From: a virus
Reading direction: 5' to 3' (one strand)
DNA: 24,177 nt
Virus genome (UHGV): UHGV-0274038
Under the pieces are notes generated by a model. The model worked only from the letters and a program-made list of their open reading frames with translations. It was not told the DNA's origin and searched no databases. Made by a program: the position numbers and the translations under genes. Shown here one piece after another: positions 2,058 through 11,570 of this stretch. Numbering within the stretch: the first letter of the stretch is position 1; every line of letters begins with the position of its first letter.

Positions 2058-3140
2058 TTAGAACTGGTAAACCATACCTACAGCAACGATATCATCGGTA
2101 GCAACGCCAGATGCTTTCGTGAAATCGCTCTTATCAATCAGGTTGATTTTGTAGTCAACAAAAGTGGACATATTTTTGTTGAAGTAATAGGTTGCACCTA
2201 CATCAACATATTCAACCAGGTCCTGATCACCCCAAACACCCAAGTCTTTTCCTTTAGAATGCAGGTAAGCAACGGATGGACGCAGGCCGAAGTCGAACTG
2301 ATATTGTGCAACAGCTTCGAAGTTTTGTGCTTTGTTGGCAATATGGTTATTACCAAAAACAGTCATGTTCTGGGTTTCAGAATAGGTGGTGGCCAGATAG
2401 ATGTTGTTCGCATCATATTTCAGACCAGCTGCCCATACTTCAGCATTTTGACCAGAAGCATTCAGACCGTTGTTACCGTAGATAACCTGATTATTAGTGC
2501 GATCAGATTTAGCATAGGTTGCACCCACGCCGAATCCTTCATACTCATAAGTAGTTGAGAAACCGAAACCATCGCCATTAGCTTCAGTTACTTCATTTCG
2601 GTCATTTTTGCCCTGATACTGAGCTGCAAAGTTCAGGCCATCAACCAGACCAAAGAAGTCGTTGTTACGATAAGTTGCAACACCTGTGGTGCGACCAGTC
2701 ATGAATACATCTGTTTGGGTCCAGGTATCGCCACCGAATTCTGGCAGAACGTCGGTCCATGCACCAATATCGTATGCTACACCGTAGTTACGGCCATAAT
2801 CGATGGAGCCGTAGTCACCGAATTTCAGGCCAGCGAAGGCAAGACGGGTTTTATCTTTGGAGGAACCTTGAGATTCAGCGCGGTTGCCTTTGAATTCATA
2901 TTCCCACTGACCGAAACCAGTCAGTTGATCGTTGATTTGGGTTTCACCTTTGAAGCCAAGACGGGCATAAGTAGTATCACCATCATCTGCATCATTAGAG
3001 GAGAAGTAGTGCTTAGCATTAACTTTCCCGTACAGATCCAGCTTGTTACTGTCTTTATTATAAATTTCAGCTGCCTGAGCAGACATCGCCATCAGTACTG
3101 ATGCAGCTACAGCAGAAATTGCCACTGTTAATTTTTTCAT
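2058..3140 (-). CDS. nmpC: Outer-membrane general porin, NmpC/OmpD/OmpC family (360 aa), prophage moron
   Basis: Signal peptide [23 protein letters not shown] then AEIYNKD...; aromatic-rich beta-strand pattern and C-terminal ...VAVGMVYQF typical of 16-strand porins. Antisense to the phage genes, between Q and the lysis cassette as in DLP12. Confidence 0.9.
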
Positions 3141-3713: not shown

Positions 3714-3929
3714 ATGAAATCCATGGATAAGTTAACAACGGGTGTCGCCTATGGCACCTCAGCAGGTAGTGCCGGGTACTGGTTTTTACAGCTGCTCGAT
3801 AAAGTCACGCCCTCACAGTGGGCAGCAATAGGTGTGCTGGGTAGCCTGGTATTTGGCCTGCTGACGTACCTGACAAACCTTTATTTCAAGATTAAAGAAG
3901 ATAAGCGCAAGGCTGCGAGAGGTGAATAA
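3714..3929 (+). CDS. S: Class II holin, phage-21 S-type pinholin (71 aa) with dual-start motif
   Basis: [71 protein letters not shown]. Two transmembrane segments; Met1-Lys-Ser-Met4 allows holin and antiholin starts. Close to recalled S21. SD GAGGTGGGG upstream. Confidence 0.9.
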
Positions 3930-4426
3930 TGCCTCCATCATTACGAAAAGCTGTTGCTGCTGCTATTGGTGGCGGGGCTATTGCTATAGCATCTGTGTTA
4001 ATCACTGGCCCAAGTGGTAACGATGGTCTGGAAGGTGTGAGACATAATCCTTACAAAGACATAGTTGGTGTATGGACTGTATGTTACGGGCATACAGGAA
4101 AAGACATCATTCCCGGTAAAACGTATACCGAAGCAGAGTGCAAAGCCCTCCTGAATAAAGACCTTGCCACTGTCGCCAGACAAATTAACCGGTACATCAA
4201 AGTCGATATACCGGAAACAACGCGCGGCGCTCTTTACTCGTTCGTCTACAACGTGGGTGCTGGCAATTTCAGAACATCGACGCTTCTTCGCAAAATAAAC
4301 CAGGGTGATATTAAAGGCGCATGTGATCAGCTACGGCGCTGGACATACGCTGGCGGTAATCAATGGAAAGGACTGATGACTCGCCGTGAGATTGAGCGTG
4401 AAGTCTGTTTGTGGGGGAAACAATGA
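3929..4426 (+). CDS. R: SAR endolysin, phage-21 R-type lysozyme (165 aa)
   Basis: N-terminal Gly/Ala-rich signal-anchor-release segment ([18 protein letters not shown]) followed by T4-lysozyme-type catalytic region (GLEGV...D...T). Start overlaps the S stop (TAATG). Confidence 0.9.
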
Positions 4427-4881
4427 GCAGAGTAACCGCGATTATCTCCGCTCTGGTTATCTGCATCATCGTCTGCCTGTCATTGGCTGTTAATCATTAC
4501 CGTGATAACGCAATCGCCTACAAAGAGCAGCGCGATAACAAGGCCAGTGAACTGGAGAAGGCGAACGCCACCATCGCTGACATGCGGAAGCGTCAACGTG
4601 ATGTAGCAGAACTCGACGCAAGATACACAAAGGAGCTTGCTGATGCTAACGCGACTATCGAAAGTCTCCGTGCTGATGTTTCTGCTGGGCGTAAGCGCCT
4701 GCAAGTCGCCGCCACCTGTGCAAAGTCAACGACCGGAGCCAGCGGCATGGGCGATGGAGAAAGCCCAGGACTTACAGCAGATGCTGAACTCAATTATTAC
4801 CGTCTCCGAAGTGGAATCGACAAGATAACCGCGCAGGTTAACTACCTGCAGGAATACATCAGGACGCAATGCCTGAAATAA
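4423..4881 (+). CDS. Rz: Rz inner-membrane spanin subunit (153 aa)
   Basis: [26 protein letters not shown]... single N-terminal TM helix then a coiled-coil periplasmic domain. ATG at 4423 preferred over the ORF-track start at 4411. Confidence 0.85.
4637..4828 (+). CDS. Rz1: Rz1 outer-membrane lipoprotein spanin subunit, embedded in the +1 frame of Rz
   Basis: Signal peptide with lipobox LLGVSAC, then Pro-rich [13 protein letters not shown]. Strong SD AAGGAG 7 nt upstream of the ATG. Lies entirely inside Rz. Confidence 0.75.
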
Positions 4882-4913
4882 TTTTTTTGCAAATCACAAA
4901 GTCCATTTAATGA

Positions 4914-4937
4914 GCCTCGCGATGCGGGGCTTTTTTT
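4914..4937 (+). terminator. Intrinsic terminator ending the lysis operon
   Basis: 7-bp stem GCCTCGC/GCGGGGC (one G-U pair), 3-nt loop, followed by T7 (4931..4937), 33 nt after the Rz stop. Confidence 0.6.
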
Positions 4938-5086
4938 ACATCTGAATTTCACAGCGCATCTCACGCGCATATTACATCACCCGAGCCTTTCAGAAAGTTG
5001 AGCCTGAGAACTGCCGTATATGGTGGCGACCATCTCGGGGCGGCTTTTCTGTGAGACAGGCTCACTTTCTAAAAGGTAAAGACGCT

Positions 5087-5575
5087 ATGAACCAATTAGA
5101 AGAAAAGCTTCAAAGAATGATTTCCTTATACAAGGAAGATAACTGCCAAAAAGTTCCTGAAAACATCGCAGAGTTAATGGAATTGGCAAGTGAATTTTCT
5201 GGCATGCTTAAGTCGTCAGGTGTTCGGTCAGCGTTCTTTGTTGAAATGCTGATGCACGGCGGACTTATGGCAACAATGAGACGTGTAATGGAAGACCAGA
5301 GAAAAGAACCTCCTCAGGTATACGTTTTGTCATCGAAGAAAACTGGGCTAACCAAAATTGGGTATTCATCCAACATTCCACAACGCATCAAATCGCTTGG
5401 CAACTCTGGACCAGACTGCTTGAAGCTTGAGTGCCTGATCCCTGGTGGAAGAGAAACTGAAAACATGCTTCATCGCAAATTTGCCGCAAAGAGAAAGCAC
5501 GGTGAATGGTTCGCCCTGTCCAAGGATGACATTGAGGGATTGAAATCTGTAGCGATTACTTCTGATGGCTATTAA
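5087..5575 (+). CDS. Accessory protein with C-terminal T5orf172 (GIY-YIG-like) nuclease domain and unrecognised helical N-terminal domain (162 aa)
   Basis: C-terminal half QVYVLSSKKTGLTKIGYSSNIPQRIKSLGN...ENMLHRKFAAKRKHGEWFALSKDD fits the T5orf172/Mug113 pattern (YVL...GL-KIG-S...R...E-LH-F...GEWF). N-terminal about 85 aa has no family I recognise. ATG at 5087 with AAAGG upstream; the ORF-track start at 5051 is non-ATG. Confidence 0.65.
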   Translation: MNQLEEKLQRMISLYKEDNCQKVPENIAELMELASEFSGMLKSSGVRSAFFVEMLMHGGLMATMRRVMEDQRKEPPQVYVLSSKKTGLTKIGYSSNIPQRIKSLGNSGPDCLKLECLIPGGRETENMLHRKFAAKRKHGEWFALSKDDIEGLKSVAITSDGY

Positions 5576-5612
5576 TGCTTGTTTAGAGCAATTTTCATAA
5601 CAACTCTTCATT

Positions 5613-5690
5613 ACAAAGCCCATCTACTGGTGGGCTTGATAATGAAACCGTGATTTACATCCCCACAATCCGGGTATGTAAAAGATAGTT
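5613..5690. repeat. Copy 1 of a degenerate direct repeat: hairpin AAGCCCA/TGGGCTT + GATAATG + CCCCACA..GGGTAT..TAAAAGATA
   Basis: Stem 5616..5622 with 5631..5637, then GATAATG 5638..5644. Shares core, flanking motif and downstream CCC-ACA/GGG-AT/TAAAAG blocks with copy 2. Confidence 0.45.
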
Positions 5691-5889
5691 CAGGCGAGAA
5701 CGGATTTAACTAAATCTGTGCGCCACCAGTTAACGGCAGTACCACGAAACAACCCAAGCCAGTAAGTGGGGAAATAACACCGGCAGCCACTGAAAGATGA
5801 ACCTCCTGCCTTATGGCAAAAAAGATTCTTTGTGGTGGCGGACTGATGGAAAGACATCCTAATTTCAGCCAAACATTGAAGGAGTTGTT

Positions 5890-5961
5890 ATGTCAGCAGA
5901 AGGTTTCAATAACCCATCAAAATTCCGGGATGAGTGGGATAGCAGCGTAAAGAGTAAGTGA
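5890..5961 (+). CDS. Small ORF candidate (23 aa, MSAEGFNNPSKFRDEWDSSVKSK) with canonical SD
   Basis: GAAGGAG 6 nt upstream of the ATG. Hydrophilic peptide lying between the two repeat copies. No known family; could be a leader peptide, a small protein or chance. Confidence 0.2.
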   Translation: MSAEGFNNPSKFRDEWDSSVKSK

Positions 5962-5968
5962 TGCCATC

Positions 5969-6060
5969 ACAAAAGCCATTCCCTACAGAGTGGCTTTGAT
6001 AATGGCTTATACCCTACACGGGATAACTTAACTGATATCCCTTTTAAAGGATAAAGGTAT
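5969..6060. repeat. Copy 2 of the degenerate direct repeat, with alternative pairings and a terminator-like hairpin
   Basis: Stem AAAGCCA (5972..5978) with TGGCTTT (5991..5997), then GATAATG 5998..6004. The segment AAGCCATT can alternatively pair with AATGGCTT (6001..6008). Followed by hairpin GGGATA...TATCCC (6020..6041) and TTTT. Confidence 0.45.
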
Positions 6061-6208
6061 TCAAGCCTGACACATCATGCGCTGTATCGTCGCCGTATTC
6101 CCGTATTAACAGAGACCGTAGCCCGACGGGGAACTCCTTCTGCGCGAGTGTGCGGGAATAATCAAAAACGATGCACACCGGGGTTACCGGGTACACATAT
6201 TTCATCAT
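6044..6208 (-). CDS. Hypothetical small ORF (54 aa) immediately downstream of ybcV
   Basis: MMKYVYPVTPVCIVFDYSRTLAQKEFPVGLRSLLIREYGDDTAHDVSGLNTFIL. Starts 45 nt after the ybcV stop on the same strand. No good SD and no recognised family, so low confidence. Confidence 0.2.
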   Translation of the reverse strand: MMKYVYPVTPVCIVFDYSRTLAQKEFPVGLRSLLIREYGDDTAHDVSGLNTFIL

Positions 6209-6253
6209 GCCAGCGAGTCCGGTTCTGGCACGGAAGAAACCGGACGTTATGAT

Positions 6254-6664
6254 TTAGTGCGGAAATATTTGTGTAGTGTTCTGAATGTTCTCAGTAAAGA
6301 GTAATGAATTATCAAAGGTATAGTAATACCTTTTGTTTTCGTGGATATTTGTAATCCATCTGAAAACCCCTGCTGTAGCAAGATTTTTCCTGTATTCGTA
6401 AAATGATAACTCTCCTGATTTGAATCCTTTTAATGTGGCTTCTATAAGGCATTTATTTTTTGAAAATCTTACATTTACAACCTTACCCTGTCCTTTTATT
6501 AAAACCGTATTATCGTTTTCAAGAACAAGATGAATATTCTCTGTGGCTAAATAGTAAATGTAATGTGAGACATTGTGACGTTTTAGTTCAGAATAAAACC
6601 AGTGATAGTTTAAATTATTTCGCACTTTATCGAATATTTGTTTAAAAATGGCAACCTGAGCCAT
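6254..6664 (-). CDS. ybcV: YbcV-like protein (DUF1398), 136 aa
   Basis: [58 protein letters not shown]...[25 protein letters not shown] matches recalled DLP12 YbcV. SD GGAAGG 7 nt upstream of the internal ATG chosen as start. Confidence 0.8.
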
Positions 6665-6721
6665 TGTAGTACCTTCCATGTGATATGAAGGTACCTAGTC
6701 TGCACGATTATCTAAATTGCT

Positions 6722-6955
6722 TCAATCTGGTCTGACCTGCTTTCTGAGCAATTCAGTAATGTCACTCTTTTCTTTGTTTGCTTCAGGCGAAACTCTTTTT
6801 TCTGAGCACAGTCTTCGGCGGCAGGCTTCAATGACCCAGGCTGAGAAATTCCCGGACCCTTTTTGATCAAGAGCGATGTTAATTTGTTCAATCATTTGGT
6901 TAGGAAAGCGGATGTTGCGGGTTGTTGTTCTGCGGGTTCTGTTCTTCGTTGACAT
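6722..6955 (-). CDS. ylcI: YlcI-like small protein (DUF3950), possible ribbon-helix-helix DNA binder, 77 aa
   Basis: MSTKNRTRRTTTRNIRFPNQMIEQINIALDQKGSGNFSAWVIEACRRRL... has a strand-helix-helix pattern. Sits upstream of ybcV on the same strand, next to cos. Confidence 0.6.
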   Translation of the reverse strand: MSTKNRTRRTTTRNIRFPNQMIEQINIALDQKGSGNFSAWVIEACRRRLCSEKRVSPEANKEKSDITELLRKQVRPD

Positions 6956-7099
6956 GAGGTTGTCCCGTATTCAGTGTCGCTGATTTGTATTGTCTGAAGT
7001 TGTTTTTACGTTAAGTTGATGCAGATCAATTAATATGATACCTGCGTCATAATTGATTATTTGACGTGGTTTGATGGCGTAGATGCACGTTGTGACATG

Positions 7100-7343
7100 C
7101 AGATGATAATTATTATCATTTTGCGGGTCCTTTCCGGCGATCCGACAGGTTACGGGGCGGCGACCTCGCGGGTTTTTGCTATTTATGAAAATTTTCCGGT
7201 TTAAGGTGTTTCCGTTCTTCTTCGTCGTAACTTAATGTTTTTATTTAAAATACCCCCTGAAAAGAAAGGAAACGACAGGTGCTGAAAACGAGCTTTTGGG
7301 CCTTTGTCGTTTCCTTTCTCTGTTTTTGGCCGTGGAATGAACA
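7100..7343. promoter_or_regulatory. cos: cos region (cosQ, cosN, cosB with terminase and IHF binding elements)
   Basis: Flanks of cosN match the recalled lambda cos region up to the Nu1 start. Individual R and I elements not delimited. Confidence 0.6.
7155..7166. other. cos: cosN cohesive-end site (GGGCGGCGACCT)
   Basis: Sequence ...CCGACAGGTTACG|GGGCGGCGACCT|CGCGGGTTTT reproduces the lambda right-end/left-end junction with the 12-nt cohesive end, 178 bp upstream of Nu1. Confidence 0.85.
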
Positions 7344-7863
7344 ATGGAAGTCAACAAAAAGCAGCTGGCTGACATTTTCGGTGCGAGTATCCGTACCATT
7401 CAGAACTGGCAGGAACAGGGAATGCCCGTTCTGCGAGGCGGTGGCAAGGGTAATGAGGTGCTTTATGACTCTGCCGCCGTCATAAAATGGTATGCCGAAA
7501 GGGATGCTGAAATTGAGAACGAAAAGCTGCGCCGGGAGGTTGAAGAACTGCGGCAGGCCAGCGAGGCAGATCTCCAGCCAGGGACTATTGAGTACGAACG
7601 CCATCGACTTACGCGTGCGCAGGCCGACGCACAGGAACTGAAGAATGCCAGAGACTCCGCTGAAGTGGTGGAAACCGCATTCTGTACTTTCGTGTTGTCG
7701 CGGATCGCAGGTGAAATTGCCAGTATTCTCGACGGGATCCCCCTGTCGGTGCAGCGGCGTTTTCCGGAACTGGAAAACCGACATGTTGATTTCCTGAAAC
7801 GGGATATCATCAAAGCCATGAACAAAGCAGCCGCGCTGGATGAACTGATACCGGGGTTGCTGA

Positions 7864-7889
<26 letters not shown>
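7344..7889 (+). CDS. Nu1: Terminase small subunit Nu1 (181 aa)
   Basis: MEVNKKQLADIFGASIRTIQNWQEQGMPVLRGGGKGNEVLYDSAAVIKWY... essentially identical to recalled lambda Nu1. Confidence 0.95.

Positions 7890-11570
<3,681 letters not shown>

Follow-up and report, generated by a model that had tools for sequence, protein, structure and literature searches.

The DNA between the lysis genes and ybcV in the viral genome UHGV-0274038 is one allele of a widespread accessory-gene slot, rather than a private island that replaces bor. We tentatively propose that the gene in this slot (5087-5575, plus strand) encodes an accessory nuclease of the "Bro network" that is made late and that the phage can do without, and that it is one of many alleles of a slot in the late lysis operon. 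All coordinates refer to the window, by which we mean the whole 24,177-nucleotide stretch that was analysed. A first-pass annotation had described 4938-6253 as an accessory island in the bor position and as a candidate for an undescribed system, perhaps an anti-phage one. From left to right, the parts of the segment are:

4693-4881, plus strand: 3' third of Rz and end of Rz1, HK97/P22-type; moves together with the cassette
4912-4937, plus strand: Rho-independent terminator of the lysis operon; 5' edge of the slot frame
4938-5086, plus strand: conserved leader, common to different cassette genes
4985-5077, plus strand: leader hairpin of about 95 nt
5087-5575, plus strand: exchangeable ORF of 162 amino acids (RefSeq WP_016245257.1), the equivalent of HK106 gp64
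5607-5646, plus strand: boundary hairpin TTCATTACAAAGCCCA / TGGGCTTGATAATGAA, with arms of 16 nt that are 88% complementary; 3' edge of the slot
5647-5858, plus strand: conserved linker, including a 61-bp indel (5658-5718)
5859-5987, plus strand: rare insert of 129 bp, where most phages have 23 bp
5988-6055, plus strand: linker, found upstream of a DUF2560 gene (P22-like phages) or of the HNH gene gp74 (HK97-like phages)
6056-6077: right-hand recombination joint, from HK97/P22-type linker to lambda/DLP12-type right end
6078-6253: lambda/DLP12-type DNA downstream of ybcV, outside the cassette

Borders and content of the segment

Homology to lambda and to K-12 DLP12 ends at 4692, inside Rz, and restarts at 6078, so the replaced block is 4693-6077 and takes in the 3' third of Rz/Rz1. 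The first-pass annotation was right that an interval had been replaced, but synteny breaks at 4692 and at 6056-6077, not at 4938 and 6253. Positions 4693-4881 are 98.9% identical to HK106 and to a prophage of E. coli A15, while the 5' part of Rz is only 71-85% identical. On the right, P22/HK97-type homology stops at 6055, and 6078-6253 shares 82-86% identity with lambda (46868-47041) and with DLP12; the joint between them recurs in Chlobot and PhiR49_1. A minus-strand ORF of 54 codons (6044-6208) is annotated as hypothetical in both of these phages, but its status is doubtful and it matches no family. These homology breaks support the view of the segment as an exchangeable cassette at a mosaic joint, in place of the bor of lambda and DLP12.

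As reported, bor itself is absent: lambda Bor and DLP12 BorD had no tblastn matches on either strand of the segment, and their sole match across the whole window was at chance level (E = 5, 9067-9192). The segment also has no ORF with a lipobox. The bor gene of lambda and borD of DLP12 occupy the same interval as the window gene, between Rz and the ybcV homologue. However, bor is a minus-strand lipoprotein gene and the window gene is on the plus strand, and lambda and DLP12 lack the leader and the slot frame altogether. The neighbouring minus-strand pair was correctly identified as ybcV (DUF1398; 6254-6679) and ylcI (6722-6955).

The terminator-like hairpin at 4912-4937 has a G+C-rich stem of nine pairs followed by a run of T. 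It is annotated as a terminator in HK106, HK544, epsilon34, and phi80, and pairs in its stem show double changes in the Stx2a phage. It had been taken for the cassette's own upstream terminator, but it is common to phages with quite different genes behind it, so it belongs to the lysis operon.

Downstream of the gene, the ORF-poor, repeat-bearing DNA of the earlier description is 5576-6253 (678 bp), with only short ORFs, none of which has a family match. It is conserved linker plus gene remnants, common to P22-like and HK97-like phages. A gene that ST64T has at full length (orf-118) is represented by its first 15 codons, which begin at 5813. The repeat ATCACAAAGnCCAT is present at 4893, 5610, and 5966, and the hairpins at 5607-5646 and 5963-6006 each end in GATAATG; the boundary hairpin (5607-5646) has no T tail. 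The rare insert at 5859-5987 contains AAGGAG, an ORF of 23 codons (5890-5961; no Pfam match), and the 5' arm of the second copy of the boundary hairpin (5963-6006). Among 50,697 phage records, only HK544 and Salmonella phage Emek have this insert; it is missing from HK106, Chlobot, HK620, epsilon34, and HK97.

The slot and its other occupants

From sequence comparisons, the frame of the slot comprises the terminator after Rz, a leader of about 150 nt, one exchangeable ORF, the boundary hairpin, and linker DNA. The leader shares 72-88% identity with those of phi80 rha, the Rha gene of the Stx2a phage, HK620 hkbK (KilA-N), and epsilon34 gp68, and homology with those phages breaks off at 5091, just 5 nt into the ORF. 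With HK620, Louie, HK97, and ST64T, homology picks up again exactly at 5609, right after their own cassette genes. The frame of leader, ORF, and boundary hairpin explains how unrelated genes swap at identical junctions.

The slot was defined in this analysis, with the ORF beginning 19-25 nt after a CAGGCTC motif. The window has this spacing, a leader hairpin that ends 8-10 nt past the start codon, and a boundary hairpin downstream. Known occupants include Rha, KilA-N (with ORF11CD3 or P63C), and another allele of T5orf172 with 33% identity. In viral contigs, we identified 97 ORFs that follow the leader motif, including 59 Rha, 19 KilA-N, 6 T5orf172/MUG113, 3 ANT, 1 Bro-N, and 1 HNH. We looked for a virgin allele of the slot, with no cassette, and found none. 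ST64T has no cassette, but it retains the 3' end of a gp73-like gene, so we interpret it as a deletion rather than as an empty site.

The Rha and KilA-N cassettes (phi80 rha, the Stx-phage Rha gene, HK620 hkbK, HK97 gp73, and HK544 gp62) have the same frame as the window, and the ORF lies at the same distance from a leader that sequesters the Shine-Dalgarno sequence. Their proteins differ from the window protein in that they have DNA-binding domains (Phage_pRha, KilA-N, ORF11CD3, or P63C) and no nuclease fold. Rha, KilA-N, and the T5orf172 gene of the window all belong to the domain-shuffling Bro network, in which T5orf172 is counted as the nuclease domain (PMC10111431). The phi80 record describes Rha as an inhibitor of DNA synthesis in hosts that are deficient in IHF. 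No exact match to the IHF consensus WATCAANNNNTTR is present in the window.

A conserved hairpin in the leader

The leader RNA is the freshest element of the segment. In its predicted fold (-44.3 kcal/mol, z = -4.1), a basal stem pairs CCUUUC (4985-4990) with AAAAGG (5071-5076), which is the Shine-Dalgarno sequence, 10 nt before the ATG at 5087. Seven homologues have the same fold (z from -2.4 to -6.9). In the leader alignment, 90.6% of cells are paired and 21 of the 34 pairs show double changes, a level that none of 500 shuffles reached. The score was 0.338, versus at most 0.088 in slid controls. A model of the leader (R1) identified five further copies that were not used for training, each of which ends 8-10 nt past the start codon. 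The window (4973-5095) scores 134 bits, but R1 was built partly from the window; independent copies score 40-52 bits. By these comparisons the hairpin is conserved, with support from covariation.

Nothing in 4400-7400 matched Rfam 15, which includes C4 and IsrK, at E ≤ 1; over 4880-5110 there were only chance matches to hairpins, with at most 18 bits. C4 and IsrK RNAs control genes of the Bro network elsewhere. A consensus scan between the terminator and the ORF (4938-5086) found no sigma-70-like promoter. By eye, TTCACA-16-TATTAC at 4948-4975 is a weak promoter candidate, which the other leader allele does not conserve. The leader also contains a direct repeat (GCGCAT-N5-GCGCAT, at about 4954-4970).

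The ORF is open upstream as far as a GTG at 5051, which we considered as an alternative start and rejected. In the Salmonella orthologue, indels in the leader put this codon out of frame. Also, this stretch is part of the covarying hairpin, and the RefSeq start is the ATG at 5087.

A small T5orf172 protein

The first-pass annotation had reported a T5orf172-domain gene on the plus strand, and the ORF at 5087-5575 matches both Pfam MUG113 (6e-15; 56 bits with a cut-off of 22.3) and Pfam T5orf172 (3e-10; 41 bits with a cut-off of 20). The protein belongs to the T5orf172/MUG113 branch of the GIY-YIG nuclease superfamily and has its alpha/beta fold. This family has 38,349 library representatives that match at E ≤ 0.001. 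The GIY-YIG-fold domain is C-terminal (residues 77-155) and is preceded by a predicted three-helix bundle (residues 3-71). In about 148 diverse relatives, Y79, K90-I91-G92, R100, E125, H129, and E140-W141-F142 are invariant, and the window protein retains all of them. These residues probably form the active site, with a tyrosine in the first strand, an arginine in helix 1, and a catalytic glutamate; we take these catalytic roles partly from what holds for I-TevI.

Residues 1-75 match no Pfam or NCBIfam domain, the modelled bundle resembles only generic bundles, and we found no recognisable DNA-binding domain. Phage Louie has a Tad2-like protein at the same position, but its N-terminus does not resemble the N-terminal domain of the window protein. 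The whole protein has no match in NCBIfam or, by single-protein or profile searches, in the PDB, and its only match in PHROGs is to family 4284, whose function is unknown.

The protein could instead be a catalytically silent regulator that uses T5orf172 as a module for binding DNA or protein, as in CapR of PLE, and does the regulatory or antirepressor-like job of Rha or KilA-N. This would fit with a leader and slot that are common to Rha, KilA-N, P22_AR_N, and ANT proteins, and CapR, a domesticated relative, functions as a repressor. Furthermore, in the closest Salmonella cluster representative (P0002, 98% identical), a glycine replaces the invariant Glu140. However, the window protein keeps all of the family's invariant residues, including Tyr79, Arg100, Glu125, and Glu140, and a separate DNA-binding domain was not found, so we consider a regulatory role to be quite improbable.

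Distribution and selection

The gene is present in 82 of 5,426 complete E. coli genomes, versus 3,498 with bor, and in two phages (HK106 and Chlobot). The backgrounds are DLP12-type, P22-like, and HK97-like, and across these E. coli genomes and phages the ORF has 99.2-100% nucleotide identity. Orthologues with 48-83% identity are found in Salmonella, Klebsiella, and other bacteria, and they likewise lie after lysis genes. The ORF is intact (at least 80% covered) in 80 of the 82 E. coli copies; of the two others, the one that we examined has an internal deletion.

The ratio dN/dS is 0.08-0.15 at dS of 0.76-2.2, which shows that the gene is under strong purifying selection. These low ratios, the intact ORF in nearly all copies, and the conserved structure of the leader make it very improbable that the gene is decaying passenger DNA without a function, even though it is dispensable in HK106 and the surrounding 680 bp consist of remnants and linkers.

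Another potential explanation is that the gene encodes a selfish, free-standing homing endonuclease, which cuts alleles of the slot that lack the gene and is copied in by repair. This would account for its position at a mosaic joint. The near-identity of the ORF across at least four phage backgrounds, next to leaders that are just 81-85% identical in some of them, and the sporadic distribution are both consistent with homing. Sequestration of the ribosome-binding site would also fit, as the homing-endonuclease genes of T4 use hairpins in the same way. T5orf172 is a subfamily of GIY-YIG that phages use for putative homing nucleases and for the anti-satellite nuclease Odn, and T5orf172 genes have been proposed to be homing endonucleases at the boundaries of exchange between phages (PMC10448857). 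The putative T5orf172 homing endonucleases and Odn of vibriophage ICP1 (Barth, Dunham, and Seed, 2023) resemble the window protein in their catalytic domain family and in having a C-terminal nuclease domain after a non-catalytic N-terminal domain, and their genes also lie between essential modules at exchange boundaries. But those proteins have zinc-finger (CapR, DUF723, or DUF4397) or RepA_N domains, while the window protein is much smaller and has only a three-helix bundle. Zinc-finger domains are present in 87% of the T5orf172 homing genes that have been surveyed. Strong purifying selection and a position that is kept across genera at 48-83% identity are unlike cycles of invasion and decay, and only two E. 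coli copies fall below 80% coverage. Finally, genes that do not encode nucleases also change places within this frame, so exchange needs no more than the conserved flanks. Overall, we find homing doubtful.

Replacement of the gene in HK106

The gene and its flanks are already in the sequenced phages HK106 and Chlobot, which does not support the reading of an undescribed system. The copies in HK106 (gp64, YP_007151734.1, annotated as "GIY-YIG nuclease family protein") and Chlobot are the same gene, with 99.8% nucleotide identity, and like the window's they follow Rz and a terminator and precede the same linker. HK106 differs in its right end, which is HK97-type (HNH gp74) instead of ybcV/ylcI/nohD, and in its leader allele (81% identical).

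Exactly this ORF in HK106 has been swapped for atiEcA of phi80, using primers that map to 5063-5089 and 5576-5601 of the window (PMC11364771, published in 2024). The replacement yielded viable phage in which atiEcA functioned during infection; the authors labelled the HK106 gene as "not involved in the life cycle" (PMC11364771). The gene is therefore dispensable in HK106, and an ORF placed in this slot is expressed during lytic growth. Although the gene turns out to be part of a known phage, it is still uncharacterised.

In phi80, the genes between lysis and packaging are expressed under Q (PMC11364771). The immunity and counter-immunity pair TaiEcA/AtiEcA is in the same genome region (Rz, rha, tai, ati), upstream of the packaging module, but is not similar in sequence to the window gene. 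Also, Tai of phi80 is encoded on the minus strand and produced in the lysogen, while the window gene lies on the plus strand and follows the leader. The phi80 pair shows that conflict genes reside in this region, and that its plus-strand genes are expressed late and depend on Q.

Comparison with defence systems

The suggestion of a defence system was not borne out. PADLOC-DB 2.0 gave only a domain-level match, to the unvalidated candidate PDC-S57 (7e-6). This match spans about 80 of 212 profile positions (3-83), which is just the shared domain. The model for PD-T4-3, a single-gene GIY-YIG defence, is not matched, and the window protein has no extra reader or target-recognition domain. None of the segment's short ORFs nor ylcI matched anything in PADLOC-DB, and ybcV had a chance-level match to Csx23 (E = 0.025).

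Nothing in our results points to a defence role. If the gene encoded an anti-phage or superinfection-exclusion nuclease, then the protein would be made by the lysogen and would cut incoming phage DNA. We think this is unlikely: besides the lack of a match to any described system, the scan from the terminator to the ORF gave no sigma-70-like promoter, the gene shares its strand with the late operon and has a sequestered ribosome-binding site, and Rha, KilA-N, and antirepressor genes can stand in its place. Also, both TaiEcA of phi80 and bor of lambda are on the opposite strand, and the window gene is not.

A proposed role in lytic growth

Our preferred reading remains that of a late accessory nuclease. 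In most phages, the slot holds a Bro-network gene of the Rha, KilA-N, or antirepressor type, and here it holds the network's nuclease member. Recombination has brought this slot allele into a prophage whose lysis cassette is of the phage-21 type and whose right end is lambda-like, so that it stands where bor would be. Late transcription, antiterminated by Q, would read through the terminator into the gene, and the leader hairpin may throttle or gate its translation. The protein would then cut or bind DNA during lytic growth, perhaps giving the phage an advantage over other DNA in the cell, for example that of competing phages, prophages, or satellites. It would probably not be a host-protecting gene that is expressed in the lysogen, as bor is.

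A more speculative version, which we would not expect to hold in full, is that the leader represents an undescribed class of cis-regulatory RNA that gates the translation of exchangeable conflict genes (Rha, KilA-N, antirepressor-type, and T5orf172) in the late operons of enterobacterial temperate phages. The T5orf172 allele would then be a small late nuclease that a protein partner, instead of a DNA-binding domain, recruits via the helical bundle. Its targets would be competitors, such as satellites, heteroimmune prophages, or co-infecting phages, whose DNA it would destroy.

The slot is a ready insertion site for genes in these phages, and one laboratory has already used it as such. If the leader is regulatory, then it ties long-unexplained genes of the Bro network to a common control, and their timing becomes testable. 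A compact, putative T5orf172 nuclease, with no DNA-binding domain that we could recognise, may offer a tractable entry to the role of this large family in temperate phages.

A T5orf172 gene in place of bor

The window is a DLP12-like lambdoid prophage with these genes:

2058-3140, minus strand, porin gene
3714-3929, phage-21-type holin
3929-4426, phage-21-type lysozyme
4411-4881, Rz
4637-4828, Rz1
5087-5575, plus strand, T5orf172-domain protein (162 aa)
6254-6679, minus strand, ybcV (DUF1398)
6722-6955, minus strand, ylcI
7344-7889, nohD
from 7864, large terminase

The first-pass annotation described 4938-6253 as an accessory island with a plus-strand T5orf172-domain gene and about 680 bp of ORF-poor sequence instead of bor. 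This is correct: the one convincing gene (5087-5575) matches Pfam's MUG113 (6e-15) and T5orf172 (3e-10), both above the curated cut-offs; tblastn with lambda Bor and DLP12 BorD gave no match in the segment; and the 678 bp 3' of the gene contain only short ORFs with no family matches. The gene is a "known unknown": it is already catalogued, and RefSeq names its product "GIY-YIG nuclease family protein" (WP_016245257.1).

We also note that PHROGs labels ybcV and its lambda homologue (lambdap78) as 'head protein'. This looks doubtful for ybcV, which lies outside the head operon on the minus strand. Its sub-threshold match to HEPN_AbiA_CTD (E 0.014) is probably due to chance.

An exchangeable late-operon slot

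Homology to K-12 DLP12 and lambda breaks off after 4692, inside Rz, and returns at 6078, so the differing block is 4693-6077. In its place, lambda and DLP12 have the end of Rz/Rz1 and bor with about 115 bp of bor's upstream sequence. HK106 matches the window at 4491-5858 and then at 5988-6055, with identities of 98.9% in the 3' part of Rz, 98.2% in the terminator, 81.2% in the leader, 99.8% in the T5orf172 gene, and 90-98% in the linker downstream of it. The right-hand joint (6056-6077) is also present in phages Chlobot and PhiR49_1.

Mapping by homology against twelve phages showed that this is a modular, exchangeable site in the late operon. The Rz terminator (4912-4937) and leader (4938-5086) form part of a fixed frame and are common to phi80 rha, the Rha gene of an Stx2a phage, HK620 hkbK (KilA-N), and epsilon34 gp68. 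The leader's similarity to other phages ends 5 nt inside the ORF and restarts exactly at a hairpin (5607-5646), right behind those phages' own genes (HK620 hkbL, HK97 gp73, and Louie's gene). Occupants include Rha (with ORF11CD3), KilA-N (with ORF11CD3 or P63C), and a second T5orf172 allele (33% identical). Because genes that encode no nuclease are swapped at these junctions too, the exchange needs no explanation beyond the conserved flanks.

In phage Louie (L014 1581-2051), the gene at this position is joined straight to the terminator without the leader, and its product has a Tad2-like (Thoeris anti-defence 2) domain (PF11195, 9e-27).

The ORF-poor DNA resolves into these pieces:

5607-5646, boundary hairpin
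conserved linker 3' of the boundary hairpin, with a 61-bp indel
first 15 codons of ST64T orf-118 (full length in ST64T)
5859-5987, rare 129-bp insert, with part of a second copy of the boundary hairpin
DNA that in P22-like/HK97-like phages lies upstream of the following gene
from 6078, lambda-type DNA

HK544 and Salmonella phage Emek are the only other phage records with the 129-bp insert, which stands where most phages have 23 bp. It contains a strong AAGGAG, a 23-codon ORF (5890-5961; MSAEGFNNPSKFRDEWDSSVKSK), and the 5' arm of the second hairpin copy (5963-6006). At 5813-5858, a conserved ORF start (MAKKILCGGGLMERH) corresponds to the N-terminus of ST64T orf-118; in other phages it runs into 5988-6006. 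In HK97-type sequences this ORF stops after about 26 codons, within the hairpin; in the window it has another tail, through the insert, and 45 codons. A putative 54-codon minus-strand ORF at 6044-6208 has no family match and is annotated as 'hypothetical protein' in Chlobot and PhiR49_1. In Stx2a phages, where ORFs are likewise present on both strands, conservation of this DNA is about 81%.

Distribution and constraint

In 50,697 phage records, the T5orf172 gene occurs only in HK106 (gp64) and Chlobot (99.8% nucleotide identity). It is present in 82 of 5426 complete E. coli genomes, always at 99% identity or above, and 73 of the 82 have the whole 1.38-kb arrangement; bor, for comparison, is in 3498. 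The gene's phage backgrounds number at least three: DLP12-type prophages at argU (many decayed), P22-like prophages with a lambda-type holin, and HK97-like HK106. More distant orthologues in Salmonella (83% amino acid identity), Klebsiella (74%), and other bacteria (48%) have the same position, directly 3' of quite different lysis cassettes and 5' of terminase genes. A relative with 38% identity lies elsewhere, among tail genes. Purifying selection acts on the protein (dN/dS 0.08-0.15 at dS 0.76-2.2); that the segment is junk DNA is highly improbable.

In two decayed DLP12 remnants (L006, plasmid pF138-4, and L007, strain PE15), an IS3-family element lies within the Rz terminator (junction at 4922) and everything upstream, including Q and the lysis genes, is lost; the nuclease gene, ybcV, and ylcI are intact and 100% identical. 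One decayed-remnant copy is in a 42.7-kb record that is labelled as a plasmid, yet carries chromosomal nfsB, ybdF, and ybdK. In a Klebsiella variicola prophage (L023 4489-5187), a gene for a 232-aa Endonuclease_NS protein (PF01223) overlaps the orthologue's end by 4 nt, so this slot possibly holds a two-nuclease operon.

A structured leader

A conserved structured leader occludes the ribosome-binding site. Positions 4985-5077 fold into an approximately 95-nt hairpin (-44.3 kcal/mol, z = -4.1). In its basal stem, CCUUUC is paired with AAAAGG, which is the Shine-Dalgarno sequence and lies 10 nt 5' of the ATG. Seven homologues have the same fold (z -2.4 to -6.9), including the diverged leaders from Klebsiella and another compared locus, L024. 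A covariance model built from eight leaders found five further copies outside its training set: 5' of the KilA-N genes of HK544, PhiR49_1, and HK97 (gp73), the P22_AR_N-ORF11CD3 gene of an Stx2a phage, and phi80 ORF 66. All five end 8-10 nt beyond the start codon. In the alignment, which was fitted to the model and has the window's own reverse strand as one row, pairing holds in 90.6% of cells, and both partners have changed in 21 of 34 pairs; 0 of 500 shuffles reached these values, and the covariation score (0.338) dropped to at most 0.088 when partners were slid.

A pattern scan of viral contigs placed the leader at at least 120 loci, with an ORF starting 19-25 nt past its 3' motif. Among 97 ORFs behind it are 59 Rha, 19 KilA-N, 6 T5orf172/MUG113, 3 ANT, 1 Bro-N, and 1 HNH, so the leader is a common front end for the Bro network (PMC10111431), and T5orf172 is a minority occupant. 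Rfam 15 gave no match, and the motif appears to be undescribed.

In an Stx2a-converting phage (L017 1176-1296), a second, diverged leader hairpin precedes an antirepressor-type P22_AR_N-ORF11CD3 gene just 5' of Rz, so such phages hold two Bro-network genes with this kind of leader. Just 5' of the window's hairpin lies the direct repeat GCGCAT-N5-GCGCAT (4954-4970), spaced by one helical turn, a potential protein-binding site. Six of seven aligned leaders have the repeat intact; in epsilon34 it is altered (a 3-nt gap). The sequences on either side vary between alleles.

Role of the T5orf172 protein

T5orf172 is described as a subfamily of the GIY-YIG nucleases whose members are putative homing endonucleases at boundaries of exchange; zinc-finger DNA-binding domains occur in 87% of surveyed genes (Barth et al., PMC10448857). 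A purely selfish homing endonuclease is nevertheless unlikely here: the protein is strongly constrained, its DNA-binding domain is missing, and non-nuclease genes use the same junctions. In the AlphaFold model, which is confident (pLDDT 87), residues 3-71 form a three-helix bundle and residues 77-155 an alpha/beta domain; the bundle has no DNA-binding fold, and its structural matches are generic helical bundles only. We conclude that the product is a constrained GIY-YIG-type protein. Domesticated T5orf172 proteins include the anti-satellite nuclease Odn and the repressor CapR (PMC10448857). A catalytically silent regulator, like its slot-mates, is less probable still.

In the closest Salmonella cluster (P0002), the representative (98% identical) has Gly for Glu140, which is invariant in 148 of 148 diverse members, so it is possibly an inactivated variant.

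Published experiments show that the gene is dispensable in the laboratory and that the slot is functionally expressed in lytic growth. Overlap primers for an HK106 "chimeric" phage (CACTTTCTAAAAGGTAAAGACGCTATG and TGCTTGTTTAGAGCAATTTTCATAAC; Table S8 of PMC11364771, on Tai) map to 5063-5089, whose last bases are the ATG, and to 5576-5601, which begins past the stop. In HK106 the two sequences lie at the ends of gp64, so exactly the T5orf172 ORF was swapped out. The chimera was still viable, and the inserted gene, driven by the slot's leader, neutralised TaiEcA in infection (PMC11364771). In phi80, plus-strand genes between lysis and packaging are expressed via Q antitermination, and this region is described as a moron and immunity locus (PMC11364771).

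The first-pass annotation's suggestion of an undescribed defence system was not supported: PADLOC gave only a domain-level match to an unvalidated candidate, and a consensus scan between the terminator and the ORF found no promoter. A defence nuclease expressed by the lysogen is about as unlikely as the homing endonuclease: no test was positive, and the strand, the leader, and the slot's company all indicate lytic-phase use. We favor, tentatively, a late-operon slot gene for conflicts with other elements. It would be transcribed late and Q-dependently, its translation would be gated or throttled, and the protein may have a DNA-directed activity that aids the phage against resident or co-infecting elements.

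The finding is real yet largely ordinary: this gene occupies a well-populated variable slot and does not amount to a categorically new system. Of the by-products, the leader RNA motif is the most interesting, and it is directly testable.
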